55,746 nucleotides of DNA, from assembly GCA_031406075.1 (NCBI GenBank), contig JANOGP010000356.1:1-55746 (forward strand), given 5' to 3'. Shown here one piece after another: positions 4,669-33,516 of this stretch. Origin of the DNA: Betaproteobacteria bacterium. Its GTDB lineage: Bacteria; Pseudomonadota; Gammaproteobacteria; Burkholderiales; JACQAP01. The position numbers were made by a program, and so were the translations under genes. The notes below the pieces were generated by a model. It saw only the letters and a program-made list of their open reading frames with translations. It had not been told where the DNA came from and searched no databases. Each line of letters begins with the position of its first letter. Position 1 is the first letter of the stretch.

Positions 4669-4862
4669 GCCACAGAGGGCACAGAGAATTCTTCACAATA
4701 CCCCCTTGAGGGGTACACAGAGGAAAACGAAAGAGACACAAGTTGATCAAGATGCAAAGAGTCATGCAGTGCTAGCAAATTGCCACTGCCCACGCCGTTC
4801 CAGTCGCCCTTAACCCCCCAATTGCTCTTGCACTCCTCTGGGTTCTCTGTGCCCTCTGTGGC
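4669..4862. repeat. Family A fold-back element (9-mer CACAGAG arms) with 27-bp insert at 4689-4715
   Basis: Left arm GCCACAGAGGGCACAGAGAA[27]CACAGAGG; right arm CCTCTGGGTTCTCTGTGCCCTCTGTGGC; interior is an inverted homolog of 8104-8269. Confidence 0.9.
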
Positions 4863-4872
4863 AAAAAAGGGT

Positions 4873-5190
4873 TTAGGGAGCTAACCATTGCAGCAGCCAC
4901 AAGGCAGCCATGCCGACTACGATGGTCGGCATAATTTTCTTGAAGCGCCACGCCACCAGGATTGCGATTGCGCCGGCGATCAGGCGATGATTGTCCATGC
5001 TCGCCGCAAATTGACTGTCCCGAACCAGTAACTCCGGAAACACGATCGCGGACATCACCGCCGGTGGCACGAATCCGAGCGCGCGTTGTACCAGGGGTGG
5101 CATCCCCCAGTTCGCAAGCAGAGAAATGAACGAAAGGCGGATGAGGAAAGTCAGCACGCCCGCAACGATCACCACCAGCCAGAGGTTCAC
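4873..5190 (-). CDS. azlD: AzlD-domain branched-chain amino acid exporter, small subunit
   Basis: TFLIRLSF, ALGFVPPAVMSAIVFP; GTG start overlaps azlC stop (GTGA). Confidence 0.85.
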   Translation of the reverse strand: MNLWLVVIVAGVLTFLIRLSFISLLANWGMPPLVQRALGFVPPAVMSAIVFPELLVRDSQFAASMDNHRLIAGAIAILVAWRFKKIMPTIVVGMAALWLLQWLAP

Positions 5191-5873
5191 TTCCGCAGCC
5201 TCCAAGCCAGCATTCCTGCGCTGATGCCGCAGAACGCGGCGAGAATAAGCCCGAGCTTGTAAGGTAGTCCGAAGGCGGCTACCGCCACCATGCCGCCCAC
5301 CAGCGCCGTAATCACGTCGGCCCGCGACCTGAGCACCGGCACCAGCAACGCAATGAACGACAGCGCCAGGGTGAAATCGAGCGACCACTCGCGCGGTATT
5401 TCAGTACCGAGGAAGATGCCGACCGCGGTGCTCGCCTGCCAGGTGCCCCACAGCGCCACGCCGGCGCCGAAGAAATACCAGTGCCGGTTCCGTTCTCCAG
5501 AGTTTTCGCGGTAGTGCGCGATCGCAACCGCAAATGCCTCGTCCGTAAGCAGGTAGGAAAGCACCCACTTCCATGCCCGAGGCAGCTCCTTCACGTATGG
5601 CGCCATCGACGCGCTGTACAGCGCGTGCCGCAGATTGATGATGAAAGTGGTCAGGACGATCACCAGTCCCGATGCGCCGGCGCCGATCAACTGGGCGGCG
5701 ATGAATTGCGCCGAGCCGGCGAACACGATCAGCGAGATCGCCTGCGCCAATATCACGGGAATCCCGGCGCCGATCGCAAGCACCCCGTAAATGATGCCGA
5801 AGGGAGCGGCGCCGATCAGCAGCGGGAAAGTATCCCTCAGACCGGAAAAGAACTGCGCGCGGGCGCTGGGCAT
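5187..5873 (-). CDS. azlC: AzlC-family branched-chain amino acid exporter
   Basis: FAGSAQF, INLRHALYS, LTDEAFA; start refined to MPSAR. Confidence 0.92.
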   Translation of the reverse strand: MPSARAQFFSGLRDTFPLLIGAAPFGIIYGVLAIGAGIPVILAQAISLIVFAGSAQFIAAQLIGAGASGLVIVLTTFIINLRHALYSASMAPYVKELPRAWKWVLSYLLTDEAFAVAIAHYRENSGERNRHWYFFGAGVALWGTWQASTAVGIFLGTEIPREWSLDFTLALSFIALLVPVLRSRADVITALVGGMVAVAAFGLPYKLGLILAAFCGISAGMLAWRLRK

Positions 5874-6056
5874 GGTTTCGATCACGCTGTTATTGTCGGC
5901 CGATTGTAGACAGGCGCTTGATGCCGCGTCCGTTAAGGTTTTACGGAATCGCGGCCGGAACGGGGAATCGCCGGGCCGATCCACCCTTGCTGCTTGAGCC
6001 CGGACAGTTGAGTCTAGGCACCCTTCGACAGGGTACCGTCTTACAATTTCCGTGGC

Positions 6057-6914
6057 TTAAGGGTTCGACTTGCGGTTCAGAGTGTTGGTAGGCTCGCGCT
6101 CCTGCAGAATGTCCTGCATGCGCGTTTCGATCGCGGGTTTGATTTTCTGGTGCGGAAGGATGTAGAACTTCTCCTCCCTGATCGCTTCGAGAACCATTTC
6201 CGCGACTTCTTCGGCGGAAATGCGCCCAGACTGCACCGCGTGGCGCATTTGCTCTTCCCGTTTCAAGTCCTCAGGGCTTTTCTTCTTTTCCTCGAGCAAC
6301 GATGCGGGACGGTTTCGCTCGGAATCGGAAATGCCGGTGGGCACGTAGGCGGGGCAGAGCACCGAAGCCTTGATCTTGGCGCCGAATTCGACCAGGTCGT
6401 GGTGCAGGCATTCGGTCAGCGTGACTACCGAGTGCTTGGACACGCAGTAGACGCTCATTCCCGGCAGCGACAGCAGTCCAGCCACCGATGCCGTGTTTAC
6501 GATGTGGCAGTCCATGTTCTGCTCGAGCATGCGTGGCACGAAGGCGCGGATGCCGTGAATCACGCCCCATAAATTGACGCCCAACGTCCATTCCCAGTCT
6601 TTTTCGCTTTGCTCCCAAACCGTACCGCCGGGCGCGACGCCGGCGTTGTTGCACAGCACATGCACGCCACCAAAGGTCTTGAACGCCTTGTCGGCCAGCG
6701 CCTCGACGTCCTTGCCCTTCGACACGTCGGTGCGCACCGCCAGTACCGGAATGCCGGCCTGTTCGAATTCGGTTTCGGTTTTTTTCAGGGCATCGGCCTG
6801 GATGTCGGCCAGAACAATCTTCATGCCCTCGCGGGCGAAGCGCAGCGCCATGGCGTGGCCGAGGCCGCTCGCACCCCCGGTGACGACTGCGACACGGTCC
6901 TTGAACTCTTTCAT
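6057..6914 (-). CDS. Short-chain dehydrogenase/reductase
   Basis: TGGASGLG, NNAG, YCVSK. Confidence 0.93.
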   Translation of the reverse strand: MKEFKDRVAVVTGGASGLGHAMALRFAREGMKIVLADIQADALKKTETEFEQAGIPVLAVRTDVSKGKDVEALADKAFKTFGGVHVLCNNAGVAPGGTVWEQSEKDWEWTLGVNLWGVIHGIRAFVPRMLEQNMDCHIVNTASVAGLLSLPGMSVYCVSKHSVVTLTECLHHDLVEFGAKIKASVLCPAYVPTGISDSERNRPASLLEEKKKSPEDLKREEQMRHAVQSGRISAEEVAEMVLEAIREEKFYILPHQKIKPAIETRMQDILQEREPTNTLNRKSNP

Positions 6915-7042
6915 CAGCGTGATTGCAGAGGAAAAAACGCACGGATTCTAACATGCGGGTTTTCACCGTCCCGCGCCGCGTTGGCAAGCTCAGAGCGCGA
7001 ATGGTATTCTCGCCGGGCTTACAGAGAGGGGGAGAGAAGTTC

Positions 7043-8104
7043 ATGAACGAGGAGTTCATCGGCACGATGCCGGTCCATGAGCGGCATCGCTTCGATGTTG
7101 CCAGTCTGGAACGCTATCTGCGCGAGCATGTCGCAGGCTTCTCGGGAAACCTCGAGGTCGAACAGTTCAAGGGCGGCCAGTCCAATCCCACCTTCAGGCT
7201 GACGGCGGGCGGCAAGCGCTACGTTCTGCGCCGCAAGCCGCCGGGCAAGCTGCTGCCATCGGCGCACGCAGTGGACCGGGAGTACCGCGTGATCACCGCG
7301 CTGCACGGCAGCGACGTGCCGGTGGCGAAAACCTACTGCCTGTGCGAGGACGACGCGGTGATCGGCACGGCGTTCTACATCATGGATTACGTAGAAGGCC
7401 GCGTGCTGTGGGATCCGTCGCTGCCCGGCACGAGCACGGTTCAGCGCGCGGCGTACTTCGACGAGTTGAACCGCGTGATCGCCGCGCTTCACAAAGTTGA
7501 TTACGTCCGGGCAGGCCTCACCGACTACGGCAAACCGGGCACCTACATCGAGCGGCAGATCAGCCGCTGGACCAAGCAGTACCGTGCCTCCGAAACCGAG
7601 CGCATCGAGGCGATGGAGGATCTGATCGAGTGGCTGCCGAAGAACATGCCGCCGGGCGACGAGACCACCATCGTCCATGGCGATTACCGGATGGACAACG
7701 TGATTTTTCATCCGAAGGAGCCGCGGATCCTCGCAGTGCTCGACTGGGAACTGTCCACACTTGGACATCCGCTGGCGGATATCGCGTATCACTGCATGGT
7801 CTGGCGGCTTACTCCGGGCCAGTTCCGCGGCATGAACGGAATCGACTTTCGCGCACTGGGCATACCGACCGAGGAAGAATATGTCGCCGCTTATTGCAGG
7901 CGCACCGGCAGGAATCACGTTGCGAACTGGGATTTCTACCTGGCCTACAACATGTTCCGCCTGGCAGGGATACTTCAGGGCATCATGGGCCGGGTCAAGG
8001 ACGGCACCGCGGCAAGCGCGCACGCAATGGAGCAGGGCAAGCGCGCCCGGCCCATGGCCGAAGCCGGCTGGCGCCAGGTTGAGAAGATCCTTAAGACCAA
8101 TTAG
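7043..8104 (+). CDS. APH-family phosphotransferase (ACAD10/11 N-terminal-like)
   Basis: GGQSNPT, SAHAVDREY, HGDYRMDN, LDWELSTLGHP; start refined to MNEEF. Confidence 0.92.
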   Translation: MNEEFIGTMPVHERHRFDVASLERYLREHVAGFSGNLEVEQFKGGQSNPTFRLTAGGKRYVLRRKPPGKLLPSAHAVDREYRVITALHGSDVPVAKTYCLCEDDAVIGTAFYIMDYVEGRVLWDPSLPGTSTVQRAAYFDELNRVIAALHKVDYVRAGLTDYGKPGTYIERQISRWTKQYRASETERIEAMEDLIEWLPKNMPPGDETTIVHGDYRMDNVIFHPKEPRILAVLDWELSTLGHPLADIAYHCMVWRLTPGQFRGMNGIDFRALGIPTEEEYVAAYCRRTGRNHVANWDFYLAYNMFRLAGILQGIMGRVKDGTAASAHAMEQGKRARPMAEAGWRQVEKILKTN

Positions 8105-8269
8105 CCACAGAGGACACAGAGGACACAGAGGAGAGCAAAAGCAAATTGGGGGTTAAGGGCGACGTGCAAGGTGTAGGCAGCGATACCTGCGAGCAGCGTC
8201 TGACTCGTTGCATTCTTATCAGCCTATTTCTCTTTCGTTTTCCTCTGTGCCCTCTGTGCCCTCTGTGGC
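8104..8269. repeat. Family A fold-back element directly upstream of the GxxExxY gene
   Basis: GCCACAGAG-GACACAGAG-GACACAGAG ... CTCTGTGCC-CTCTGTGCC-CTCTGTGGC; first G is the last base of the upstream TAG. Confidence 0.92.
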
Positions 8270-8292
8270 CCAAATTTCTTTGGGGTAGATAG

Positions 8293-8658
8293 ATGCCCGA
8301 CGAGTTGACGGAGCGCATTATCGGAGCGGCGGTGGAAGTTCATCGTCATCTGGGGCCAGGTTTGCTCGAGAGTATTTATGAAGAGGCGCTGACTTATGAA
8401 CTAGGATTGCGGCAGATCAAATTCGAAAGGCAAATCGCCATTGACGTCTTGTACAAAGATATTCGTATTCATGGACAGCGACTCGATTTGCTCGTCGAAA
8501 AAGAGGTTGTCGTTGAAATAAAGTCTATGAAGGCGGTTCCTGCCGTGGCTTCCGCGCAAGTGCTCTCCTATCTTAAGGCAACGGGGCTCAAGCGTGCTTT
8601 GCTGATAAATTTCTCGGAAACAAAGTTAGTCAATGGGATAAGGCGGTTCTCTCTGTGA
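8293..8658 (+). CDS. GxxExxY protein (PD-(D/E)XK nuclease-like)
   Basis: 121 aa; IIGAAVEVHRHLGPGLLESIY, RLDLLV..VVVEIK, AQVLSYLK, LLINF; more AT-rich than its neighbours. Confidence 0.93.
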   Translation: MPDELTERIIGAAVEVHRHLGPGLLESIYEEALTYELGLRQIKFERQIAIDVLYKDIRIHGQRLDLLVEKEVVVEIKSMKAVPAVASAQVLSYLKATGLKRALLINFSETKLVNGIRRFSL

Positions 8659-8677
8659 TCTCTGTGTACTCTGTGGC
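8651..8677. repeat. Family A right arm containing the GxxExxY stop codon
   Basis: CTCTGTGAT-CTCTGTGTA-CTCTGTGGC; TGA at 8656-8658 lies in the first unit. Confidence 0.9.
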
Positions 8678-8692
8678 AAGGAAAGGTTTTAG

Positions 8693-9673
8693 ATGAAAGC
8701 GGTACTGTGTAAAGAACTCGGGATGCCCGACAAGCTGGTTGTCGAGGATGTGCCTTCGCTGAAGGCTGCGAAGGGACAGGTGATCATCAACGTAAAAGCC
8801 TGCGGGGTGAATTTCCCCGATACCTTGATCATCCAGGGCAAATATCAGTTCAAGCCGGAACTGCCGTTCTCGCCCGGAGGCGAGGTTGCCGGCGTGGTCA
8901 AGGAAATCGGCGAGAGCGTGACCCGTGTCAAGCGCGGCGATAGGGTGATCGCGTTTAATACCTGGGGAGGATTTGCCGAGGAGATCGCGGTGGACGCGGA
9001 ACGTACCATCCCGATGCCGGCGGCAATGGATTTCATACCTGCTTCGGCATTCGTGCTGACCTACGGCACCTCCTATTACGCCCTAAAGGATCGTGCAGAA
9101 CTCAAAGCCGGCGAAACGTTGCTGGTGCTGGGGGCTGCGGGCGGGGTGGGCCTCGCCGCGGTACAGCTGGGCAAGGCGATGGGCGCAAAGGTCATCGCGG
9201 CAGCCTCGAACGATGCCAAACTGCAGATCTGCAGACAGAATGGCGCCGATGCGGTGATCAACTACGGCACCGAAGACCTGCGCGCACGGATCAAGGTTCT
9301 TACCGCGGGCAAGGGAGTGGACGTCGTGTATGACCCGGTCGGCGGACCGTACTCGGAGCCGGCCTTGCGCGACATGGCGTGGAATGGCCGCTTCCTGGTG
9401 GTCGGCTTCGCCGCCGGCGACATTCCCAAGGTACCGCTGAATCTGACCCTGCTGAAGGGCTGTTCCATCGTCGGCGTGTTCTGGGGCGCGTTCACAAAGA
9501 ATGAACCCGAGCGCAATCGGGAAAACAACTTTGACCTGATGGCAATGTATGCGGCGGCCAAGGTCAGGCCGCATATCCACGCCACCTATCCGCTGGAGCG
9601 CGCCTCGGAAGCACTTAACGAAGTTCTCAACAAGCGCGTCACCGGCAAGGTTGTTCTGGTGACAGGTAAATAA
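8693..9673 (+). CDS. NADPH:quinone oxidoreductase (MDR family)
   Basis: GVNFPD, PFSPGGEVAG, LGAAGGVG, GKVVL. Confidence 0.93.
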   Translation: MKAVLCKELGMPDKLVVEDVPSLKAAKGQVIINVKACGVNFPDTLIIQGKYQFKPELPFSPGGEVAGVVKEIGESVTRVKRGDRVIAFNTWGGFAEEIAVDAERTIPMPAAMDFIPASAFVLTYGTSYYALKDRAELKAGETLLVLGAAGGVGLAAVQLGKAMGAKVIAAASNDAKLQICRQNGADAVINYGTEDLRARIKVLTAGKGVDVVYDPVGGPYSEPALRDMAWNGRFLVVGFAAGDIPKVPLNLTLLKGCSIVGVFWGAFTKNEPERNRENNFDLMAMYAAAKVRPHIHATYPLERASEALNEVLNKRVTGKVVLVTGK

Positions 9674-9677
9674 ACCT

Positions 9678-9845
9678 TTTCACCGCAAAGGCGCAAAGGA
9701 CGCAAAGAAGAACAAAAACAGGCAAATGTGAAAATCGCACAGGCTGCGGATTTAGAATCATGGACGAATATCGTTCTTGTTTGCATGTTCCTTGTATTTC
9801 ACAATTTTCGTTTTCCTTTGCGTTCTTTGCGCCTTTGCGGTGAAA
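9678..9845. repeat. Family B fold-back element (CGCAAAG arms)
   Basis: TTTCACCGCAAAGGCGCAAAGGACGCAAAG ... CTTTGCGTTCTTTGCGCCTTTGCGGTGAAA. Confidence 0.9.
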
Positions 9846-9862
9846 GTAGTGAGGAGGTTCAT

Positions 9863-11035
9863 ATGAATGAGGCAGTCATTATCGAAGCGGTGCGCACGCC
9901 GTTCGGCAGGCGTGGCGGCGCGCTGCGAGAGCTGCGGCCCGATTCCTTGCTGGCGCATGCGCTCGACGGACTCATCAAGCGGTCGCAGATCGACCCGCAG
10001 AAGATCGAAGACGTGATCGACGGCACGGTGACGCTCGCCGGCGAACAGGGCGCCAACCCCGCCCGACTGGCGGTGCTGCTTTCCGGGTTACCGGTGAAAG
10101 TTCCGGGCGTGTCCTTGAACCGCATGTGCGGCTCAAGCCAGCAGGCGGTTCATTTCGCTGCGCAGGCCGTGGCGGCCGGCGACATGGATTACGTAATTGG
10201 TTGCGGCGTGGAGAGCATGACGCGCGCACCGATGTTTCTGGACATCGGCCTGGGCCGGACTGTCAGCGGCTTCGAAGCGCTGAATCCGGAACTGTTCCAA
10301 CGCCACGAGTTGATCCATCAGGGTGAAAGCGCCGAACGCATCTCGGAAAAGTGGGGCTTGTCGCGGCAGATGCTCGACGACTTTGCCAGGGAAAGCCACC
10401 GCCGCGCCGCGCAGGCCCAGAAGGCCGGCTCCAACAAGGAGTTGTTGCCGGTGCAGGGCGTATCGCCGGAAGGCCAGGCGATGCGGCTGGAGCGCGATGA
10501 AGGCGTGAGGGCGCAGATCGACGAGGCCAAGATGGCTTCGTTGAAGCCGGCGTTCCGCCCTGACGGAAACGGCGTGATCACCGCGGCAAATTCCAGCCAG
10601 ATCTCCGATGGCGCCGCCGCCGTACTGGTTGCGAACAGGGACGTTGCGGCGGCCGACGGTTTCAAGGCGAAAGCGCGTTTCCGTGCTCGTGTCGCGGTCG
10701 GCTCCGATCCGATGATGCAACTCACCGGCGTTATTCCGGCGACCGAACTGGCGTTGAAGAAGGCGGGAGTCGCCATCAAGGATATCGACTGGATCGAAAT
10801 CAATGAGGCCTTCGCGGCAGTGGTGCTGTCCTGGGCAAGAGAAATGCATCCCGACATGGACAAGGTCAATCCCTGGGGTGGGGCCATCGCCCACGGACAT
10901 CCGCTTGGCGCCACCGGTGCGGGGCTGATGTCGAAATTGCTGGCCGGCCTGGAAGCCACCGGCGGCACACTTGGGCTTCAGGTCATGTGCATCGGCCACG
11001 GCCAGGCCACCGCCACCATCATCGAACGTTTCTGA
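9863..11035 (+). CDS. Thiolase (acetyl-CoA acyltransferase)
   Basis: [44 protein letters not shown] before ATG 9863. Confidence 0.95.
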
Positions 11036-11047
11036 ACCCCGCGAGAA

Positions 11048-11815
11048 ATGGCGAAGGCGATTCGCATCGCGATTCTGCTGTTTGCGCTGGCGACCGTCGC
11101 GGTCGGCGCGTGGCAGACGCGATCCCGTATCCAGTCCTGGCAGCGCACTTTTGACGTTGTCGTGTATCCCGTCAACGGTGACCGGCGCGATGCCACCGAG
11201 GAGTACATCCGGTCACTCACCAATGAGTCGTTCGCTTCCATCCGGGGCTTCATGCGCCGCGAAGCAGAGCGATACAAATTTGACCTCGTCACTCCGGTCG
11301 ACGTCTTCCTGGGTCCGCAGGTTTCGACGCTGCCGCCGGCTCCACCCAGGGGCGGCTCCACCGCGGGCATCATGGTATGGAGCCTGAAGCTGCGCTACTG
11401 GGCGTGGCGCAACGACGACTATCCGGGCTCAAGGCCGGACATCCGAATTTTCGCGGTGTTCTATGATCCGGCGACCACCCCGCAGGTGGAACACTCGATC
11501 GGCTTGAAGGAGGGGCTGATCGGGGTTGCCAACGTATTTGCGGTCAATCATATGACGGAAGAAAACAACGTAATCGTCGCGCACGAGCTTTTGCACACAC
11601 TGGGCGCTACGGACAAATACGATCCGTCAACCACCCAGCCGCTGTTCCCCGCGGGTTTTGCAGACCCTGAACAGTTGCCGCTCTATCCCCAGGAATTCGC
11701 CGAGATCATGGCCGGTCGCGTCCCGCTATCCGAAACCGAATCCGACACGCCGCGGAACCTCGATCTGGCGATCATGGGTCCGAAGACGGCCGCCGAGATC
11801 AGCTGGCGGCACTAG
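11048..11815 (+). CDS. Membrane-anchored putative zinc metallopeptidase
   Basis: N-terminal hydrophobic anchor; AHELLHTLGATDKY (HExxH). Confidence 0.7.
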   Translation: MAKAIRIAILLFALATVAVGAWQTRSRIQSWQRTFDVVVYPVNGDRRDATEEYIRSLTNESFASIRGFMRREAERYKFDLVTPVDVFLGPQVSTLPPAPPRGGSTAGIMVWSLKLRYWAWRNDDYPGSRPDIRIFAVFYDPATTPQVEHSIGLKEGLIGVANVFAVNHMTEENNVIVAHELLHTLGATDKYDPSTTQPLFPAGFADPEQLPLYPQEFAEIMAGRVPLSETESDTPRNLDLAIMGPKTAAEISWRH

Positions 11816-12131
11816 CGTCCTGTTCCGCTGATTCCCGGCTGAAAACCCGGCGAGAATCGGCGCCATGCGGTGTTACGAGTCCTCGCCGTGCGTGTCGGAG
11901 CGCGGAAGAGGGGCCCCTCTGGGGATCTGACCGTGGAGACACGCGTAAGGCCGGTGGTCGACACGCTATTGGCCGGTTGCACGGTCGCATTCCCGCAAGC
12001 GGGGCGGCTGTCGAGGCGGAGCAGGACACCAGGAAATCTCTCCACGTCCTTCCCGGCGCGCTCGCGCGTGCCACGAACTGTTTCACCTTGTTGATCGGAG
12101 CCGGCTGCTGGGTGGCCTCTATCGTTATTGT

Positions 12132-13874: not shown

Positions 13875-13976
13875 GGTGAATGGTGAGGGGTGAGCGGTGA
13901 GGAGTGAGGAATAGACCAAGCCTCGCTCCTTTTGTCGTCCTTCGTGTACCCCTCGAGGGCGTATTGAAAAGTATCC
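13875..13976. repeat. Heptamer tandem array (RGTGARN x5) plus degenerate family A arm with 27-bp cassette
   Basis: GGTGAAT GGTGAGG GGTGAGC GGTGAGG AGTGAGG at 13875-13909; TACCCCTCGAGGGCGTATTGAAAAGTA at 13947-13973 (22/27 to the cassette). Confidence 0.75.
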
Positions 13977-16725: not shown

Positions 16726-16726
16726 T

Positions 16727-18922
16727 TCAGACTGGCTCCCTCGCCAATTCCGTCCGGTTGCGTACCTTGTTTTTCAGCGGGAACCGGGCGTTGACGCTGG
16801 TGCCGGAGTCCTTTCCCGTGAGTATCTGAACTTCCCCCCGAAAAGCGCGGGCGCGTTCGCGCATTCCATGAATTCCGGATGATCCCGGATCCAGCAGCTT
16901 GGCAGAAGGCAGACCGACTCCGTTATCGTGAATGTCCACCACGACGTCATCCCCGGTCTTGTACACGCGTACCCGAATTTGCGTCGCCCGTGCGTGCCGC
17001 ACCACGTTGGTAAGCGCCTCCTGCACGATGCGAAACAGAGCAGTCTGCGCCTCTGCTTCGAGGTTGGCAGGGGGCGATTCGAAATGCAACTCGCAGCCGA
17101 TGCGATAGTGCTTCTGGAGCTCCTGGACCTGCCACTCGATGGCGGGCCAGAGGCCGAGGTGGTCGAGGATGCTGGGGCGCAGTCCGGTGGCAATGCGCCT
17201 GACGGTCTGAATTGCGGAATCGACCAGCACGCCGGTGTCGCTGAGCTTGTCGTTGGACAGGGGTTTTCCGTTGGCCAGCGTCTTTGCGTACCAGTGAAGG
17301 TCCATTTTCACCGCGGTCAGCGTTGCCCCCAGTTCGTCGTGTATCTCACGCGCGACCGCTGTGCGCTCCGATTCGCGCGCCGATTGCAGATGCGCGGAGA
17401 GTTTGCGCAGCTTTTCCTGCGAGGCGCGCAGCGCCTCTTCGGTGTGTTTGCGCTCGGATATTTCCTTGAGAAGCGCGTTGTTGACGGATACCAGATCCCG
17501 GGTTCTCAGTTCCACCGCGTCCTCGAGCCGCGCGCGCGATTCCTGCAGGAGCGTTTCCACTTGTTTTTGCTCATCGATATCGGTTCCCGCTCCGACCCAG
17601 AGCATGATCGCGCCGGCGGCATCGCGCACCGGTAGCGCTCGCACCAGATGCCACCGGTAGGCCGAATCCGATCCGCGCAGAACGCGCATGCTGATCTCGT
17701 AACCTTCCCCGCTCGCCAGGCTGTGCAACCAGCGTTCCCGGCACGCCGGCAGATCCTCCGGGTGCACGATCTTGTCCCAGCCCCAGCCCTCGATGTGCGT
17801 GAACGCGCACCCGAAATAGTCGAGCGTGGGACGATTGACGTAATCCACATAACCGTCGGCGCGCGCGGTCCAGACCATGCTGGGTACGGCTTCCGCCAGC
17901 AGGCGAAAGTGCTCCGCGGCGGCGGCGGCGTGCGCGTACACGGCGAGTTCCTGCACCAGCTTCGCCTGCCGCCGCTCGAGCGCTTTGCGCGCGGTGATGT
18001 CGCGTGCGACGACGTGCGCGGAAGGGCGTCCCTGATAATCGCAGGGTGAGGCGATGGACTCTACTTCAATTTCGGAACCGTCCCGGCGAACCAGCTTCAA
18101 TTCCATCGGCGGCAAATCGCAACGTTCGTCGTCGAGCTTGCGTATGCGTTCCCGCACCGCCGCCACGTGATCCGGATGGATGAACGGCTCGATCGGCTTT
18201 CCGATCAGTTCTTCGACGCTCGCTACGCCGTACATGCGCGCTGTGGCGGCATTGGCGGAAACGATGCCGCCCTCGGCGCGGATGTAGATGGCGTCGCGGG
18301 AAAGTTCGACCAGGTTGCGGTAACGTGCTTCGCTTGCCTGAAGCCGTTCCTCGCCCAGAATTTGCTCGTGGATATCGATTGCGGTGACAATCCACTTCAG
18401 AATGGCGCCCGCACGGTCGCGCACCGCCGCCGCGCGCCCCAGATGCCAGCGATATTCCCCGTCGGCCGCCCGCAGCAGGCGGTAACGGATGTCGAGGCAG
18501 GGCCCGCCGCTTACGGCCACTTCCCACCATCGCCGGGTGTTTTCCAGTTCGTCCGGATGCACGGCCTTCATCCATCCGTTGCCGCGGCTGTCTTCGCGCA
18601 ACAGACCAGAGTATTCGGTCCAGCAGCGGTTGCAGAAATCGACCGCCCCGTTCGGCCCCGCGGTCCACACCATCTGGGGCAGGAAGTCGGAGACGAATCC
18701 GTGCCAAAACCTGGCCTCGGTCGCCGCATTGTCGCCTCTATGTTCGCTGAATACGCCTCGGCGGCGCTGTGCGCCGGCCGGCCCGTTGCCGTGCCAGTTG
18801 TTTCCACGTCCCTGTTCGGGGATGCGTTCGGCCCCAGTGGATGCGCTGCCCGGTGCCGGGACGCGTTCCGGGGCGCTTTTTTGGGGAGGTTTTCGTCCGG
18901 GTGAAGTAAGTCGCGTCGCCAT
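16727..18922 (-). CDS. Multi-PAS HisKA_3 sensor histidine kinase
   Basis: Three PAS/PAC domains, ERTAVAREIHDELG, FRIVQEALTNVVRHA, DNGVG; RBS AGGAGG before ATG 18922. Confidence 0.93.
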   Translation of the reverse strand: MATRLTSPGRKPPQKSAPERVPAPGSASTGAERIPEQGRGNNWHGNGPAGAQRRRGVFSEHRGDNAATEARFWHGFVSDFLPQMVWTAGPNGAVDFCNRCWTEYSGLLREDSRGNGWMKAVHPDELENTRRWWEVAVSGGPCLDIRYRLLRAADGEYRWHLGRAAAVRDRAGAILKWIVTAIDIHEQILGEERLQASEARYRNLVELSRDAIYIRAEGGIVSANAATARMYGVASVEELIGKPIEPFIHPDHVAAVRERIRKLDDERCDLPPMELKLVRRDGSEIEVESIASPCDYQGRPSAHVVARDITARKALERRQAKLVQELAVYAHAAAAAEHFRLLAEAVPSMVWTARADGYVDYVNRPTLDYFGCAFTHIEGWGWDKIVHPEDLPACRERWLHSLASGEGYEISMRVLRGSDSAYRWHLVRALPVRDAAGAIMLWVGAGTDIDEQKQVETLLQESRARLEDAVELRTRDLVSVNNALLKEISERKHTEEALRASQEKLRKLSAHLQSARESERTAVAREIHDELGATLTAVKMDLHWYAKTLANGKPLSNDKLSDTGVLVDSAIQTVRRIATGLRPSILDHLGLWPAIEWQVQELQKHYRIGCELHFESPPANLEAEAQTALFRIVQEALTNVVRHARATQIRVRVYKTGDDVVVDIHDNGVGLPSAKLLDPGSSGIHGMRERARAFRGEVQILTGKDSGTSVNARFPLKNKVRNRTELAREPV

Positions 18923-23902: not shown

Positions 23903-24095
23903 GCAGATCACGTCGACTCCTCCTTTTGGAGGTAGTCGACGCAAAGTCCATGCCGAGAAAAAATGTGTTCCTGGCCCGTTGATCCAGCTCCAATCTGACG
24001 GGCCGCGACACTTGGGTGCCGTTCGACGTCGCTCGACCGGCTGTCGTTTTCCGGCGACGGAGTGTCAGGCCGTGCGTAAGGTCCGAAAAGCTTTC

Positions 24096-24410
24096 ACCAC
24101 GGGGGATTCTTCACAATACCCCCTTGAGGGGTACACGGGGTACACGGAGAAAAAACGAAAACGAGGGAGAATGAATTGGAGTTCAAGACGGGGTGACTGT
24201 TCGCGAATGTGTGCCGCCACCTTTCGCTGCGATGGATCATTAGCCAACCCAGGTTTCTCACCTCAGCATGTTCTTCTTGTCTTTCCTCCGGCGCCGCCGA
24301 CACGGCGTTGGCGTAGCCATCTGGGGCGGGAGGCGGCGCTTCGGCGCACTACCCGCAAACGGCCGACTACGTCGGTAACGTGTCCGTGCGCCATCCCGTG
24401 CCCCCGTGGT
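24096..24410. repeat. Family A fold-back element with 27-bp insert (24107-24133) and interrupted right arm
   Basis: ACCACGGGGGA[27]CACGGGGTACACGGAG; interior homologous to the 27276, 29549 and 33299 copies; outer right arm CCCGTGCCCCCGTGGT ends at 24410. Confidence 0.8.
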
Positions 24411-24565: not shown

Positions 24566-24572
24566 GCCGGCG

Positions 24573-25952: not shown

Positions 25953-25990
25953 TCTACGAGGTACGGGAAAACAATCAGGTCAAGAACGAT

Positions 25991-26112
25991 GACGCAAAGG
26001 ACGCAAAGTAGAAAAGAAAGGTACGCAAAGTAATACTCAATGATGTGGCTGTTTCGTCTATGCTTTTTGTCCTCCTTTTTTCTTCGCGTTCCTTCGCGTC
26101 TTTGCGGTAAAA
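25991..26112. repeat. Degenerate family B fold-back element
   Basis: GACGCAAAGGACGCAAAG..TACGCAAAG ... CTTCGCGTTCCTTCGCGTCTTTGCGGTAAAA, between convergent genes. Confidence 0.75.
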
Positions 26113-26145
26113 GTTTTTATAGTTTTTCGGTGATGAAAATAAAAA

Positions 26146-27246: not shown

Positions 27247-27275
27247 AACGCCTCCAGATCAAAAACCAATTATTT

Positions 27276-27470
27276 GCCACAGAGGACACAGAGAACACAG
27301 AGGAAAAACAAGAACCAGGAAAAGCAGGTTGTGAATAAAGGCGAGGTAAATGTTCGCAAACTCGTGCCGCCAATTTTTGCTGCAATGGATCATGAGCCAA
27401 TGCAAGATTCTTGCCCCAGTTTATTTTCTTGCTCTTGCCCTTCCTCTGTTTCCTCTGTGTTCTCTGTGGC
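27276..27470. repeat. Family A fold-back element (no 27-bp insert)
   Basis: GCCACAGAGGACACAGAGAACACAGAGG ... CCTCTGTTTCCTCTGTGTTCTCTGTGGC. Confidence 0.9.
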
Positions 27471-27489
27471 GAAAAGTATAGATCGCAGA

Positions 27490-27987
27490 CTAGACCCGGC
27501 GGGCTTCGACGAAGTGTTTCTTCCAGTAGTCCGCGCTGAGGCTGTCGGTGCGCACGCGTCCGCCGGTGGATGGCGCATGGACGAAGCGGCCGTCGCCGAG
27601 GTACATGCCGACGTGCGAGGCCTTCTTTCCTTCCTGATCGAAAAACAGCAGGTCGCCCGGGCGCAGGCGGCGCGCTGAAATCAGCGTGGTGGCCTTGCGT
27701 TGCGCCGGTGTGGCGCGCGGCATGCTGATTCCGGCGCGGCCGTAGCTGTAGCGCACCAACCCGCTGCAGTCGAAGCCGGCCGGCGTATCGCCGGCGTAGC
27801 GATAGGGCTTGCCGATCATCTCGCGTGCAGCGGCAACGGCCTGGCGCGCCGTTTCGTCGCTGGCTCGCGTTGCCGGCGCCTCGGCGACTTGCGGCGAGCT
27901 GGCACAGCCGGCCAGTGCCGCAATTAGCAGCAGCGGTGAAAGCCGCAGCGCAACCCAAGCCGGGAACGCGCCGTGATATGTGGTCAT
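27490..27987 (-). CDS. NlpC/P60 (C40) lipoprotein peptidase, paralog of 23423-23902
   Basis: LAGC lipobox, GFDCSGL, HVGMYLGDGRFVHAPSTGG. Confidence 0.93.
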   Translation of the reverse strand: MTTYHGAFPAWVALRLSPLLLIAALAGCASSPQVAEAPATRASDETARQAVAAAREMIGKPYRYAGDTPAGFDCSGLVRYSYGRAGISMPRATPAQRKATTLISARRLRPGDLLFFDQEGKKASHVGMYLGDGRFVHAPSTGGRVRTDSLSADYWKKHFVEARRV

Positions 27988-28177
27988 CGTGTCAGGCACT
28001 CCACAAGGCCGCATGCTGTGACGAAACCAGGATAGCAGAACGTCGAGATTGCTCCTGAGGGAGAAGGGCTTGATTAACTGCCAACCGCCCCTTATTTTGA
28101 GAGTCAACGCGGCCGTCATGGTTCCCGTTTACGGACGCTTGTTCTATCCGGCAATGGCAGTTCACACAAGGAAAGAA

Positions 28178-29539
28178 ATGAAACGATTGATCTCCAGGCT
28201 GGTCCGGGCCGCGCTGGCAGGCGCGCTCACATTCGCGGCGGCCGGCGGCGCGCATGCCGGCATACCGCCGATTACCGATGGCGAGGGCACGCCTACGCTC
28301 GCGCCGATCCTCGAACAGGTAACCCCCGCGGTGGTGAATATCGCGGTGCTGTCGCGCTCCCCTGAGGAAGACAATCCGATGTTGCAGGACCCGTTCTTCC
28401 GCCGCTTTTTCGGACTGCCTGAACGCGCACAGCCACAGATTTCCGCGGGCTCGGGCGTGATTGTGGACGCGAAGCTGGGCCATGTGCTGACCAACCATCA
28501 CGTGATCAAGGACGCGAGACAGATCGTCGTCACACTCAAGGACGGCCGCCAGATCGAGGCCAAGCTCCTCGGTTCGGACGCCGGTACCGATATCGCCTTG
28601 CTGAAAATCGAGGGTCAGAAACTCACCGCAATCGGATTTGCCGATTCAGACAGGCTGCGGGTGGGGGACTACGTGCTGGCAATTGGCAACCCCTTCGGCA
28701 TCGGGCAGACGGTCACGTCGGGAATCGTCAGCGCGTTGGGGCGCACGGGGCTGAGCATGGAAGGCTACGAGGACTTCATCCAGACCGACGCCTCAATCAA
28801 CCCCGGCAACTCCGGCGGGGCGCTGGTCAATCTCAGGGGCGAACTGGTCGGCGTCAATACCGCGATCATCGGCCCATCCGGCGGCAACGTCGGCATCGGC
28901 TTCGCCGTGCCGAGCAACATGGCGCGCGCGGTGATGAACCAGCTTGCGAAGCACGGCGAAGTCAGGCGCGGGCGCATCGGGCTGACCACCCAGGAGATCA
29001 CGCCGGAACTTGCGATAGCGCTCGCGCTGACACCCAACCAGGGCGCCGTGGTGGTGGACGTCGCTCCTGATTCGCCGGCGGCCAAAGCGGGATTGAAGCG
29101 CGGTGATGTGGTCGTCGCGGTGAACGGACGCAGCGTTCGCGGTTCGTCCGACCTGCGCAATCAGGTCGGCCTCATGGCGGTCGGGGAACAAGTCGAGTTC
29201 AAAGTGCTCCGCGACGGCAGGGAGCTGGTTCTCAAGGCCAGGGTCGAGAGCTTGCGCGCAGTGACTGCCCTCGGCAGCGAGATCGTGGCGGAACTGCAGG
29301 GTGCGACGGTGGGCACGGTCGAAGGCAGCGGCAAGCCGAACGCCGTGATGATCGCGGAAGTCGAACGCGACAGCCCGGCTTGGTCGCACGGGTTGCGCCC
29401 CGGCGATGTGATCGTCGCGGTAAACCGCAGGAAAGTCAGCAGCGTGCGCGAACTGATCGCCGCACTGAAGACGCCGGGCAGGGCGGTGTTGTCGGTAGTT
29501 CGTGGGGAATACATCTTCGCCATCGTGCTTCGCAGATAA
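28178..29539 (+). CDS. degQ: DegQ/HtrA serine protease with two PDZ domains
   Basis: GSGVI, TNHHV, DIAL, QTDASINPGNSGG. Confidence 0.92.
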   Translation: MKRLISRLVRAALAGALTFAAAGGAHAGIPPITDGEGTPTLAPILEQVTPAVVNIAVLSRSPEEDNPMLQDPFFRRFFGLPERAQPQISAGSGVIVDAKLGHVLTNHHVIKDARQIVVTLKDGRQIEAKLLGSDAGTDIALLKIEGQKLTAIGFADSDRLRVGDYVLAIGNPFGIGQTVTSGIVSALGRTGLSMEGYEDFIQTDASINPGNSGGALVNLRGELVGVNTAIIGPSGGNVGIGFAVPSNMARAVMNQLAKHGEVRRGRIGLTTQEITPELAIALALTPNQGAVVVDVAPDSPAAKAGLKRGDVVVAVNGRSVRGSSDLRNQVGLMAVGEQVEFKVLRDGRELVLKARVESLRAVTALGSEIVAELQGATVGTVEGSGKPNAVMIAEVERDSPAWSHGLRPGDVIVAVNRRKVSSVRELIAALKTPGRAVLSVVRGEYIFAIVLRR

Positions 29540-29548
29540 GGTCTTTTT

Positions 29549-29787
29549 GCCACAGAGGGTTCTGTTTGATACCCCCTTGAGGGGTACACGGAGGAAACGC
29601 AAGAGCAGGAAAATAGGTTCGGGTGAAAATCTTTCGTTGGCTCCTGAGCAATCGCAGCGATAGTTCGCGGTACAGGTTAGCGAACAGTTACCTCGCTTTT
29701 ATCCCCAATTCGTTTTTCCTCGTTTTTGTTCTTCCTCCGTGCCCTCCGTGTACCCCTCAAGGGGGTATTGTGAAGAATCCCCCGTGG
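29549..29787. repeat. Family A fold-back element with a 27-bp cassette in both arms (29560-29586 variant; 29751-29777 on minus strand)
   Basis: GCCACAGAGGG[TTCTGTTTGATACCCCCTTGAGGGGTA]CACGGAGG ... CCTCCGTG[TACCCCTCAAGGGGGTATTGTGAAGAA]TCCCCCGTGG; fills the gap between convergent stops. Confidence 0.92.
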
Positions 29788-29788
29788 T

Positions 29789-31459
29789 TCACGATTTTAT
29801 TGTTTCTTCCCATTCTTTCTCCTGTAATTCGCGCCACTGGATCTTGCCGGTGCCGGAGCGGGGTAACTGATCGGCGAATTCGACGATGCGTGGCACCTTG
29901 TACGCCGCCATGTGGCCGCGCGACCATTCGATGATGTCTTCCGCGCTCACCTGTCCCTTGCGGTCTTCCTTGAGGACGATGACCGCCTTCACGGTTTCGC
30001 CGCGGCGCGGGTCCGGCGCGGAGATCACCGCCACTTCCTTGATATCCGGGTGCTTGTAGAGCGTGGCCTCGAGTTCAGCCGGCCAGACCTTGAAGCCGGA
30101 GGCATTGATCATGCGCTTGAGCCGGTCGGCGATGTAGTAGTAACCGTCCTCGTCGACACGCCCGAGGTCGCCGGTGCGAAGGAAGGTCTTGCCTTCAATC
30201 TCGATGAAAACCGCTTCGTTCGCGTCCGGCCGCTGCCAGTAGCCTTTCATTACCTGCGGACCGTGCACCACGATCTCGCCCTGCTCGTTCGCTCCGAGCG
30301 GTTCGAGAGTATCGGGGTTGATCACCAGCGATTCGGTATCGAAAGTGGGAATGCCGAGGCACTGTTTGCGCGGCTTGTTCGGCGGGTTCATATGGGTCTG
30401 CGAGATGGTTTCGGTCATCCCGTAGGCCTCCATGTAATCGATTCCGCATAATTCATGGAGCTTTTGCGCGACCGCTTCCGGCATCGAGCTGCCGCCGCCG
30501 AATACATTCTGCAGCGAGGACAGGTTGCGGCCAGCGGTCGCGGGGTGGGCCAGCAGGTCCACCACCATCGTCGGCACGTTGGCCCAGTGTGTGCAGCCGT
30601 AACGCTCGATCATGTAGCCTGCGGCATCCGGATTCCAGCGCGGCAGGATGGCAATGGTCGCGCCCGCGTACAGAGGCGCGTTCATGCTGTGCTGCATGCC
30701 GGTGACGTGAAACATCGGTGCGGTCGCCAGTGCCACGGAATCGGCGGTGAATCCTTCCCACAGCGCCGCCCCGACCAGCGTGGTCATGATGGTGCGGTGG
30801 GTATGAATGCACCCCTTGGATTTCCCGGTGGTCCCTGAGGTGTAGAGAATCGCGGCGAAATCGTCCGCCTCGGCTGACGGTTTCAGCGGCTTGTAGGTGG
30901 CGGCTAATGCATCGGCCCACGACACGACACCGGGATCGGTGATGGCCAGGCGCGGCGCCTGCAGGAATTCCGGGATCTCCAGCGTGGTGTATTCGGTCAG
31001 GTAATCGCCGTAGGTGACGACGATCGCGTGTTTCACCTGCTTGCCCATCAGCGGCTGGATCTGCGGATACAGGTCCTGGGCGACGAAGGCGACGGATGCA
31101 CCGCCGTCTTCAAAGTAATGAACCAGTTCGTCGGTCACATGCATCGGGCTGACCGGTACCACGACCGCGCGCGCGCGCAGGATCGCGTAATAGGCGATGA
31201 TGAACTGCGGCGAATTCTGCATCTGCAGCATCACGCGATCGCCCTTGCGCACGCCGCAGCGGTTCTGCAGGAAGCCGGCGATGAGGTCGACGTCCTTCTT
31301 CAACTGGCGATAGGCAAGGCGCGTGTCATAAAAAATCGTGGCCGGTTTTTCGGGGTGACGCGCTGCCGATACCTCGAGATTGAAATGCAGTGCCGTGGCT
31401 GGCACGGTGAGGTGCCTGGGGAGGTGCTTGGGCCAGTGTTGCAGATGCCGGGCTTCCAT
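29789..31459 (-). CDS. Long-chain-fatty-acid--CoA ligase family protein
   Basis: YTSGTTGKSKG, YGMTET, RTGDLG, PRSGTGKI. Confidence 0.93.
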   Translation of the reverse strand: MEARHLQHWPKHLPRHLTVPATALHFNLEVSAARHPEKPATIFYDTRLAYRQLKKDVDLIAGFLQNRCGVRKGDRVMLQMQNSPQFIIAYYAILRARAVVVPVSPMHVTDELVHYFEDGGASVAFVAQDLYPQIQPLMGKQVKHAIVVTYGDYLTEYTTLEIPEFLQAPRLAITDPGVVSWADALAATYKPLKPSAEADDFAAILYTSGTTGKSKGCIHTHRTIMTTLVGAALWEGFTADSVALATAPMFHVTGMQHSMNAPLYAGATIAILPRWNPDAAGYMIERYGCTHWANVPTMVVDLLAHPATAGRNLSSLQNVFGGGSSMPEAVAQKLHELCGIDYMEAYGMTETISQTHMNPPNKPRKQCLGIPTFDTESLVINPDTLEPLGANEQGEIVVHGPQVMKGYWQRPDANEAVFIEIEGKTFLRTGDLGRVDEDGYYYIADRLKRMINASGFKVWPAELEATLYKHPDIKEVAVISAPDPRRGETVKAVIVLKEDRKGQVSAEDIIEWSRGHMAAYKVPRIVEFADQLPRSGTGKIQWRELQEKEWEETIKS

Positions 31460-31469
31460 TGAGGTCGAT

Positions 31470-33137
31470 TCAGCCGGCGAGTTTCTTGTTTTCAGCTTCC
31501 TGCAACTGCCGCCACTGAATCTTGCCGGTCGCTGATTTCGGCAGGCTGGCGACGAACTCCACCACTCGCGGGACTTTGTATGCGGCCATGCGTTCGCGCG
31601 ACCAGGCCACGATGTCTTCCTGCGTGACTTTTCCGCGGCTTGCTTCCTTTAGCACCACCACCGCCTTGACGGTTTCGCCGCGCCGCGGATCCTGCGTGCC
31701 GATTATGCAGGCCTCGTGAACGTCGGCGTGATGATAGAGCGTGGCCTCGACCTCGGCCGGCCAGACTTTGTAGCCCGATGCGTTGATCATTCGCTTGAGG
31801 CGATCGACGATGAAAAAGTAACCGTCCTCGTCGTAGTAGCCGAGGTCGCCGGTACGGAAATAGCGTTTGCCTCCGAGTTCCATGAAACTCGCCGCCGTCG
31901 CGTCCGGATTCTTCCAGTATCCGAGAAAGATCTGCGGGCCGCTGCAGACAATCTCGCCGACCTCCTTTGCGCCGAGCTCCTTCAGCGTGTCGGGGTTGAT
32001 CACCCGTGCTTCGGTCGAACAGATCGGAATGCCCAGGCATTGCTTCTTGGTGCGTTGGGGCGGGTTGATGTGCGTTGGCGCGATGGTTTCCGACAGTCCG
32101 TAGCCCTCGATGTACGAAAGACCGGTGCGATCCTGGAGACTCTGCGCCACCGCCTCGGGCATCGCCGCGCCGCCTCCGCCGATGTGCTTGATGCTGGTGA
32201 TATCGTAACGGCCGAGTTCCGGATTGGAGAGGAAGTCGATCGCCATGGTGGTGATGTTGGTCCAGCCGTCGACTTTGTGGCGCTGTATCAGTTCGGCGGC
32301 GGTGTCGCGGTCCCAGCGCGTCATCAGCGCGATGGTCGCGCCGCGGTAGATCGGCTGATTCATGCTGCATTGCATTCCGGTGACGTGAAACAGCGGCATG
32401 GTGCACAGGACCACCGAGTTGGCGTCCATTTCGACCCAGGCCGAGCCGGCAATGATCGTGCTCATCACCGTGCGATGGGTGTGGATGCAGCCCTTGGGCT
32501 TTCCGGTAGTGCCCGAGGTGTAGGGCATGACGCACATGTCGTCCGGCCCGGCGCGGTGTGGCCCGGGCGCAAGACCGGCGGCGAGGGCGTCGCTCCACAA
32601 GGTCACGCCCGGTTCACGGATCGCCTGCCGCGGCGCTGCCGCCGCTTCCGGTACCTTCAGATCGGTGGACTGGGTGAGATGATCGGAATAGGCGGCTACC
32701 AGGACGTGATCGACGCCCTTGCCGATCAGCGGGCGCAGCTGGGGAAAGACCTCCTGCCCGGTAATCGCAACCCTGGCATCGCTGTCGGAAACGTAGTGGC
32801 GCAGTTCATCGGTGAGATTCATCGGGTTCACCGGCACGGCCATCGCATCGGCGCGCAGGATCGCGTAGAACGCAATCATGAACTGCGGACTGTTCTGCAT
32901 GAACAGCAGCACGCGATCACCCTTTTGCACGCCGCAGCGGTGTTGCAGGAAGCCGGCGAGCGCATCCACCTCGCTCTTGAAAGCACGGTAGGTGAGCGCT
33001 GAACCGTAGTAGAGAAGTACGGTCTTTTCGGGTTCCCGTGCGGCCGAGCTCGCCAGATTGTGATAGACGCTGGCCCGGGGCAGCACGATTTCATGCGGCA
33101 CGTTCTCCGGCCAGAAACGGTAATGACTTGGCTCCAC
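31470..33137 (-). CDS. Long-chain-fatty-acid--CoA ligase family protein (tandem paralog)
   Basis: YTSGTTGKPKG, YGLSET, RTGDLG, PKSATGKI; GTG start after GAGGAG, aligned with the paralog. Confidence 0.92.
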   Translation of the reverse strand: MEPSHYRFWPENVPHEIVLPRASVYHNLASSAAREPEKTVLLYYGSALTYRAFKSEVDALAGFLQHRCGVQKGDRVLLFMQNSPQFMIAFYAILRADAMAVPVNPMNLTDELRHYVSDSDARVAITGQEVFPQLRPLIGKGVDHVLVAAYSDHLTQSTDLKVPEAAAAPRQAIREPGVTLWSDALAAGLAPGPHRAGPDDMCVMPYTSGTTGKPKGCIHTHRTVMSTIIAGSAWVEMDANSVVLCTMPLFHVTGMQCSMNQPIYRGATIALMTRWDRDTAAELIQRHKVDGWTNITTMAIDFLSNPELGRYDITSIKHIGGGGAAMPEAVAQSLQDRTGLSYIEGYGLSETIAPTHINPPQRTKKQCLGIPICSTEARVINPDTLKELGAKEVGEIVCSGPQIFLGYWKNPDATAASFMELGGKRYFRTGDLGYYDEDGYFFIVDRLKRMINASGYKVWPAEVEATLYHHADVHEACIIGTQDPRRGETVKAVVVLKEASRGKVTQEDIVAWSRERMAAYKVPRVVEFVASLPKSATGKIQWRQLQEAENKKLAG

Positions 33138-33298
33138 CCTGAGTTTCTCCTCGTCCTGCGTAGTCGCAAAAGGCTTTTTTGTCGTCGGGCCCGCCCTGGC
33201 AGACTCTCGCGGGCCGGTCCTTGCGGTTTCGCGACCGACTATGTTGGACATGCCTGCCGCCGAGGTCAACGCCACTCTTACGAAATAGGTAAAGTTCC

Positions 33299-33516
33299 TG
33301 AACACGGAGGACATAGAGGATTCTTCACAATACCCCCTTGAGGGGTACACGGAGGAAGAACAAAGAAAAGCGAATTGGGGTTTGGAAGAGCGTCTGTTTG
33401 TGAACCTGTGCCGCCAATATTCGTTGCGACGGATCATCAAGCAATGAAAGGCTTTTAACCCGAGTATTTTCTTTGCTCTTGCCTTTCCTCCGTGTTCTCT
33501 GTTTCCTCCGTGTTCA
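33299..33516. repeat. Family A fold-back element with 27-bp insert (33321-33347)
   Basis: TGAACACGGAGGACATAGAGGA[27]CACGGAGG ... CCTCCGTGTTCTCTGTTTCCTCCGTGTTCA. Confidence 0.9.

Follow-up and report, generated by a model that had tools for sequence, protein, structure and literature searches.

Repetitive extragenic palindromes (REPs) are palindromes of 20-40 bp whose mobility is attributed to Y1 transposases, although one superfamily of REPs, tagged with CGTC, apparently has no dedicated transposase, according to PMC3733652. Here, we describe a 27-nucleotide unit, composed of a 10-nt linker and a 17-nt hairpin, which recurs inside larger repeats of a betaproteobacterial genome. The unit was found in a stretch of 55,746 nt (contig JANOGP010000356.1 of assembly GCA_031406075.1, positions 1 to 55,746), which we refer to as the window; the genome holding it measures 3.59 Mb in 427 contigs and is 96% complete. 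We conclude with high confidence that the 27 bases form a discrete mobile unit. Our preferred reading, to which we give a probability of roughly 45%, is that of a self-contained, non-autonomous, REP-like single-strand hairpin element that is moved in trans, probably by a putative HUH-type enzyme.

Comparison with described repeat systems

REPs and REPINs (REP doublets forming hairpins), the repeats linked to REP-associated tyrosine transposases (RAYTs), are short hairpin repeats with tens to hundreds of copies, which are mostly extragenic and occur singly or as inverted pairs. They are kept near a master sequence, and their movement is believed to involve single strands and to leave no target duplication (PMC3733652 and PMC6006769). 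The unit is, or in the case of single-strand movement would be, like them in all of these respects, but differs in several others. It lacks the GT[AG]G tag at the 5' foot that PMC6006769 gives as a criterion. The four bases found there are TCAA, TCAG, or ACAA, and a GT[AG]G tag on the other strand requires C or T at flank position +2, which was present in 16 of 207 units. No REPtron, i.e., no Y1 gene flanked by the unit, was found among the three Y1 genes of this genome, at 20 other loci, or in a complete chromosome. Further, the unit is near-identical across phyla, whereas REP families are lineage-specific; it has a conserved 10-nt linker on one side; and it lies mainly inside other repeats and an intron. 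With the CGTC-tagged REPs of Di Nocera et al. 2013 (PMC3733652), it shares being a small palindromic repeat apparently without a dedicated transposase, but it carries no CGTC tag at either end, and its sequence and distribution are different. We place the unit nearest to the REP class, yet it is without the defining tag and REPtron and is not lineage-specific, and there is a real chance that it is something more.

IS608-type transposition, known as "peel and paste", is characterized by seamless insertion 3' of a short word and seamless excision, with no target duplication. Like IS200/IS605 elements, the unit is inserted seamlessly 3' of a short word and has a strand-specific hairpin beside a short guide-like stretch. 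It consists of one hairpin, however, at the 3' foot of which it ends, rather than of two different subterminal ends, and of 27 nt rather than hundreds; its target word is loose, no TnpA is linked to it, and in a weak test at low skew no replication-strand bias was seen (18 vs 16 units). General statements on single-strand transposition made here follow PMC6006769. Miniature transposable elements with inverted repeats (MITEs) of the DDE type differ from the unit, whose ends (YTC... and ...GGTR) do not form an inverted repeat, and which has no target-site duplication at any filled/empty pair.

Bacterial interspersed mosaic elements (BIMEs) of enterobacteria, BOX elements of pneumococci, and the Neisseria intergenic mosaic elements (NIME) with dRS3 are intergenic repeats built of interchangeable short modules, some of them palindromic. 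Those modules are species-specific, whereas the unit is shared between phyla and unrelated hosts, and we know of none that occurs as an exact 27-base presence/absence unit. The foldback elements of Drosophila have inverted arms of tandem short units and a variable middle, and in this they resemble the hosts of the unit, not the unit itself. The hosts differ in being bacterial, in their length of about 180 bp, and in having a 9-mer of their own in each element. To our knowledge, no transposase has been assigned to such 9-mer-arm elements, and no transposase or mechanism for them was evident in this genome. Rfam gave no match for the unit (in the window and ten further loci), its hosts, or a second nested element described below, the only real matches being to group II intron models beside the unit. 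The hairpin sequence was not found in the literature searched, the scope of which excluded subscription journals and supplementary files.

Copies of the unit in the window

The exact 27-mer matched four times in the window, against zero times in 100 shuffles, and its hairpin core was found with at most 1 mismatch at 6 places, where 0.03 were expected. The copies are the following:

4689-4715, plus strand: exact unit, with its linker at 4689-4698 and its hairpin at 4699-4715, preceded by two 9-mers in the left arm of host element 4669-4862; sequence match
24107-24133, plus strand: exact unit in the left arm of the host element at about 24092-24409, after one 9-mer; sequence match
29560-29586, plus strand: unit in which the linker is a variant and the hairpin (29570-29586) is exact, in the left arm of host element 29549-29791; sequence match
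29751-29777, minus strand: exact unit in the right arm of the same host element, 29549-29791; sequence match
33321-33347, plus strand: exact unit preceded by two 9-mers in the left arm of host element 33299-33516; sequence match, with junctions in Logan contigs
13947-13973, minus strand: decayed unit, with 2 mismatches in the hairpin (13947-13963) and the linker at 13964-13973; covariance-model match at 13945-13975, 24.7 bits

A first-pass annotation of the window had listed the same four exact copies, the variant, and the decayed copy, the last of which is here assigned to the minus strand. As it had also described, all window copies are placed at a 9-mer boundary, directly 5' of CAC, with one outer 9-mer before the copies at 24107, 29560, and 29751 and two before those at 4689 and 33321. 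Removal of the cassette restores arm symmetry with the figures reported then (28/29 at 4669 and 29/32 at 33299), and the arms at 8104, 27276, and 43818 indeed lack the hairpin. The suggestion that 27 = 3 x 9 serves to keep the repeat phase must be given up: because the same 27-nt unit also occupies hosts without a 9-mer period, the number is coincidental. Folded as DNA, the unit has a stem of 6 bp and a loop of 5 nt (-5.2 kcal/mol, z -2.1). The 4669 element as a whole forms a single long hairpin, from which the unit protrudes as a side branch (-79.5 kcal/mol, z -6.3).

Filled and empty sites

In a sister species (G022), the ortholog of element 29549-29791 shares its termini and, like it, has three 9-mers in the right arm; exactly the 27 columns of the 29751 copy are missing from it. 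At the place of the 29560-29586 unit, the sister species has a decayed 25-nt stretch. Both states were also found among the fetched loci of other lineages. In a repeat of Desulfobulbales-type genomes, site A was empty in 18 cases, filled by one unit in 18, and by two units in 3, while site B was empty in 18 and filled in 12; the group II intron site was empty in 3 cases and filled in 7. As these loci were picked for holding a unit, the ratios are biased, and it is the existence of both states that counts. The filled/empty pairs in four unrelated hosts revealed no target duplication and no footprint, and flanking microhomology did not exceed one base. The cassette had been proposed earlier to be a minimal mobile unit inserted without target duplication, and the 27-column gap in the sister species, together with the three further unrelated hosts, bears out a discrete module that is seamlessly gained or lost alone. 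Two alternatives offered at the same time, an excision footprint and templated filling at nuclease cuts, do not fit a constant 27-nt sequence common to different phyla.

The sequence 5' of the unit is purine-rich. A R-K-N-A word was found there in 56% of 208 units, compared to 4-9% at five control offsets, and the base at -1 was A in 138 of 164 distinct flanks. The orientation of the unit relative to the arm and to this 5' flank is constant. The unit itself ends in GGTA (145 cases) or GGTG (57 cases). Six units follow directly after another hairpin, head-to-tail and with zero spacer, the units of such arrays being non-identical; the arrays would be explained by the resemblance of the GGTA/GGTG end to the target word.

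Conservation and age of the unit

The unit is laid out as a linker, YTCNNTTCAR, followed by the stem and loop. In a set of 58 distinct units, pairing was maintained in 98.6% of hairpin cells, and all one-sided changes that kept pairing (22/22) were of the G-U/G-T type on the linker strand. Two swaps from CG to GC were observed at the innermost stem pair. Linker positions 1 and 10 were C..G in 30 units and T..A in 26, with 2 exceptions; as there are only two states, this may reflect lineage rather than pairing. The TC and the C of the linker were invariant.

The first-pass annotation had considered the insertions to be independent and recent, each of which proved only partly right. Host interiors were compared by local scores and z-values, because gap-tolerant global identity scored shuffled sequences alike. 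Among the six hosts of the exact 27-mer, two interiors are unrelated to the others and to each other, in agreement with independent insertion. The remaining four form one family with interiors 65-72% identical (z 17-42), and in all of them the exact cassette flanks the interior on the same side, so that, judging from these alignments, host and cassette may here share a common descent. As to recency, a copy on contig C117 has an ortholog in a related genome (G001), in which the unit is 26/27 identical, compared to 49/73 in the adjoining inner arm and interior (Fisher p 0.0018). This copy is old, and invariance therefore cannot be due to recency alone, but needs constraint or repeated copying from a master.

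Elements with two units carried the same, often rare, linker in both arms in 7 of 8 cases, the exception being 29549-29791, which suggests arm-to-arm copying or duplication of whole elements. A coupling between linker variant and 9-mer type, as would be seen for an integral or homology-spread cassette, was true within this genome only, and is broken across the genus.

Abundance and spread

The 3.6-Mb genome contains 76 copies of the hairpin, of which 42 are exact, 22 have 1 mismatch, and 12 have 2; by crude gene calls, 69 of the 76 are intergenic. For 74 of the copies the surroundings could be evaluated: 49 have repeats of the same 7-mer on either side, about 13 lie in a different, GAGGGC-type palindromic repeat, and the rest in miscellaneous repeats. 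The claim that the unit always sits inside 9-mer arms is accordingly correct for the window copies, but not genome-wide. A script that searched for inverted arms of 2-6 tandem 9-mers detected 203 foldback-like host elements with a median length of 179 bp. No unit was present in 181 of these, one in 16, and one per arm in 6.

Of 24 other genomes of the genus, 13 have the exact hairpin, as does 1 of 16 other families of the order; a reversed control pattern gave 0 matches. The 27-mer of the window, exact or with 1 mismatch, occurs in 16 of 37 genus genomes, in many arm types and at loci other than here; across the genus, the exact 27-mer was seen in CACAGAG, CACGAAG, CGCAAAG, CGCCAAG, CGCAGAG, and other arms.

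A wider scan with linker plus hairpin, using one genome per species, returned at least 127 matches in at least 116 stretches. The labels among the listed matches to near-identical units were Burkholderiales, Betaproteobacteria, and many Desulfobulbales- or Desulfobacterales-type (Thermodesulfobacteriota) metagenome-assembled genomes (MAGs), and further Myxococcota, Gammaproteobacteria, Syntrophorhabdus, Anaerolinea, and Spirochaetia. A complete 6.4-Mb chromosome labelled Desulforhopalus contains 25 copies. Outside the genus, the hosts are 9-mer arms of other sequence, a ~200-bp repeat with two sites, GAGGGC-type palindromes, and a group II intron. Five stretches with the unit were found in viral contigs. 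A search of 72,556 plasmids with a tandem array of 85 nt yielded 3 weak Thermus matches but no unit, and no RNA run was among the sequencing runs listed as containing the unit. The open reading frame (ORF) families that recur near the unit loci of the wider scan encode ABC ATPases, permeases, kinases, acyl-CoA synthetases, and other housekeeping proteins; two ORFs without a family overlap group II introns.

The ~200-bp repeat is the main host of the unit in Desulfobulbales-type loci (L011, L029, L109, and others), and has TTAGTGCCTTAC-type inverted ends, an internal CCCCGGTAAACGGG hairpin, and two insertion sites. Group II introns with the unit in antisense (RF02001, 115-135 bits) were identified at L037, L094, L087, L010, L030, L090, and L159. 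They hold it at one fixed place just 3' of the D1-D4 (RF02001) match, with a decayed copy in L159; sister introns at L153, L007, and L014 are without it. In the genome of the window (G000), the group II intron D5-D6 matches on C14, C352, C281, and C346 contain no unit.

Proposed mechanism and candidate enzymes

Taken together, the seamless, oriented, and word-directed presence or absence of the unit, its conserved 5' linker, and its tandem stacking fit an enzyme of the "peel and paste" kind. We propose that the unit travels as a single strand and is recognized by its hairpin by a putative enzyme supplied in trans, most likely a HUH/Y1-type nuclease. The left cut would be made after the R-K-N-A word, and the right cut, by the same enzyme, after the unit's own GGTA or GGTG end, upon which the donor would be resealed and the excised strand pasted 3' of a similar word elsewhere. 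Repeats and the domain IV region of group II introns would be places where the unit can land without harm and would carry it between genomes, and within a foldback host the unit may be copied from one arm to the other. Because no enzyme could be linked to the unit, our confidence is high for its being a mobile unit, and only moderate for the HUH-type single-strand mechanism suggested by this analysis.

Three Y1 (HUH) genes are encoded in the genome (C419:5028-5900, C399:~620-1000, and C14:~17300-17640). Their products have a C-terminal helix-turn-helix and score just below the cut-off for REP transposases (76.4 vs 80 bits). The gene on C419 is bracketed by an inverted GGGGTCAGGTCTTG word. A RAYT link was looked for, and no RAYT arrangement was found at Y1 loci or units. 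Of the 14 unit-bearing genomes of the genus, 13 have Y1 proteins of the terminal inverted repeat (TIR)-flanked kind, and so do all 4 of the unit-bearing genomes examined from other lineages. These subclass 2.1 proteins are taxonomically broad and without a REP of their own, none being known for them according to PMC6006769.

Several observations weigh against transposition by such an enzyme. The three Y1 genes described above are of the TIR-flanked (TIRYT, subclass 2.1) kind and have another inverted repeat, of the GGGGTCAG type, on their flanks, and no unit lies near any of them. Similarly, no unit was detected within about 1.5 kb of 20 Y1 loci in 9 genomes. In the complete 6.4-Mb chromosome, none of the 25 copies brackets a gene, since they are spaced at least about 11 kb apart, as read from their positions. 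Y1 genes and units are also mismatched within the genus: one genome (G009) has 8 hairpins and no Y1 match, another (G021) has 12 Y1 matches and no exact hairpin. The unit is a single hairpin, unlike the ends of IS200/IS605 elements, and the filled/empty differences fit gain or loss alike, fixing no direction. No 27-base polymorphism was seen in the Logan contigs of X1-X4; as these contigs end at repeats, they cannot show that such an indel is absent. Relative to the GC-skew strand, single units on short contigs showed no bias (18 vs 16), in a test that is weak because the mean skew is only 0.023. Lastly, the support from wobble-compatible substitutions, which in this genome favour the forward over the reverse strand by 23 to 5 (p 0.0009), is limited in that 15 of the 23 fall at hairpin position 17, without which 8 stand against 5, and in that the copies are not independent.

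A farther-reaching version of this proposal, which we regard as doubtful but worth stating, would make the 27-mer one of the smallest units of mobile DNA described: a single hairpin with seamless excision and insertion, parasitic on repeats and group II introns and carried between phyla, whose mover would be an enzyme of hitherto unrecognised substrate, with the TIR-flanked Y1 proteins of subclass 2.1 as candidates. If the unit is mobile, the lower size limit for a transposable unit would be 27 nt and one hairpin, and such units would cross phyla as passengers of other mobile DNA, in contrast to the current view of REPs. It would also provide a definite DNA substrate on which orphan HUH/Y1 proteins can be tested. 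An insertion that is seamless and nine codons in length is a possible marker of recent genome change in uncultured bacteria of sediment and groundwater, and would account for breaks in short-read contigs at such places in these genomes.

Alternative explanations

The alternative that survives best, although we consider it unlikely, is that the unit is a functional site kept constant by selection, its hairpin and pyrimidine-rich linker being bound, as RNA or DNA, by a conserved host factor. Such a site would be spread passively by host repeats, arm recombination, and the horizontal transfer of introns and repeats, rather than by an enzyme of its own. Its letter-for-letter conservation across phyla, the 26/27 identity of the orthologous copy next to 49/73 in the adjoining sequence, the confinement of G-U-type tolerance to one strand, and the invariant TC and C of the linker are all consistent with such a site. 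So is the tendency of both arms of an element to have the same linker variant, as from recombination or repair. A candidate for its function is a Nus-factor boxA-like word followed by a hairpin. The linker contains the YTCTTT core of the genome's own rrn boxA words (C110:2286 and C108), but in a comparison with Nus boxA and nut-like sites this six-base core was all that was common, the linker departing from true boxA outside it.

The orientation of the unit with respect to genes argues against a site of this kind: in co-directional settings, again by crude gene calls, 15 units were sense and 19 antisense, which is no bias, and the unit in the group II intron is antisense. Only 22 of 203 hosts carry it. 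Recombination would require flanking homology, whereas the exact 27-mer sits cleanly in many arm types and unrelated hosts, with no co-converted flanks, and function poorly explains spacerless tandem arrays of non-identical units. Should the unit be a binding site after all, a 27-nt word conserved across phyla would point to an unrecognised conserved factor.

The mobile hairpin element that we prefer also has to be set against an ancestral cassette, an integral part of the foldback hosts that was deleted from most of them. The shared interior family of four of the six exact-27-mer hosts, with the unit on the same side, and its fixed orientation relative to the arm would agree with this. However, it would require loss from 181 of 203 hosts, each time of exactly 27 bases and with at most one base of microhomology, and the unit is 100% identical in hosts whose interiors are 65-72% alike or show no relation. 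It also occurs in unrelated hosts of other phyla, the intron included. This explanation, which we consider improbable, is largely refuted by the filled and empty sites found in hosts that are not related to each other.

Two further explanations are very improbable. The first-pass annotation had compared the palindrome to operators of CsoR/RcnR-type metal repressors, which the repeats might carry. Its shape, a C-run, 5 bases, and a G-run with TA flanks, presumably resembles such operators, and is all that speaks for them. This idea found no support: PF02583 had 0 matches in the 96% complete genome, with control genomes positive, and the copies lie in repeats and an intron rather than in metal-gene promoters. 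Conservation also extends to the 10-nt linker. A CRISPR-repeat-like RNA-processing site fares no better. On the reverse strand, the unit reads as a hairpin followed by a short purine-rich handle, a general layout that we take to be similar to the architecture of CRISPR repeats. Against it, the genome has no match to Cas1 (Cas6 families were outside the search), a crude genome scan found two regularly spaced repeat clusters (C13 and C314), neither with the unit, tandem units have no spacers, and the wobble pattern favours the other strand.

Finally, an adapter, library, or assembly artefact, a concern raised in the first pass and nourished by the fact that the labels listed for 80 of the at least 116 stretches are all MAGs, retains a negligible probability, because Logan contigs of two separate studies span the junctions at 33321, and the unit has context-specific variants and compensatory changes and is present in the complete 6.4-Mb chromosome and in many other assemblies, from different assemblers.

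Host elements and further nested elements

Both arms of a host element are built from one 9-mer type. The commonest arm units among the 203 hosts are CACAGAG (61), CGCAAAG (60), CGCAGAG (22), CACGAAG (20), and CACCAAG (14). The interiors of 131 of the 203 have no detectable relative, and the largest interior family, with 25 members, is combined with six arm types. The same intergenic site in related species often contains a different host element or none. The following host elements, to which no strand is assigned, were identified in the window:

4669-4862: foldback-like element with CACAGAG-type 9-mer arms; from arm repeats and fold
About 24092-24409: element with CACGGGG-type arms, the right arm containing a second, different nested element (24291-24392); from arm repeats
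29549-29791: element with the unit in both arms and an ortholog in G022; from arm repeats and ortholog comparison
33299-33516: element whose site is empty in G012 and G022, while G011 has a different element without the unit; from arm repeats and ortholog comparison
27276-27470: unit-free element of the same kind; from arm repeats
About 8104-8267, 9684-9839, 25993-26106, and 42181-42366, and arms at 43820-43844: other unit-free elements; from arm repeats

The second nested element (24291-24392) is ~100 nt long and is inserted within a 9-mer of the right arm of 24092-24409. Copies with 89-96% identity are present in its own genome (C68) and in G005, G010, G017, G018, G024, and G027. Similar sequence adjoins GAGGGC-type repeats (C63 and C192), and there was no Rfam match.

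Another cassette-like hairpin of ~32 nt, which starts with ATACCCTCGC and ends with GTACCCTT..AG, was observed inside arms at three loci: L127, which is the G024 site orthologous to 33299, L186 (G022:C3), and L190 (G020:C18). In two cases it lies directly beside the 27-nt unit. It may represent a second family of nested hairpin modules.

A ~200-bp stretch of the window, at about 11812-12025, which is not a tRNA and has no Rfam match at the gathering score, occurs in many copies with 90-96% identity in each of five related genomes.

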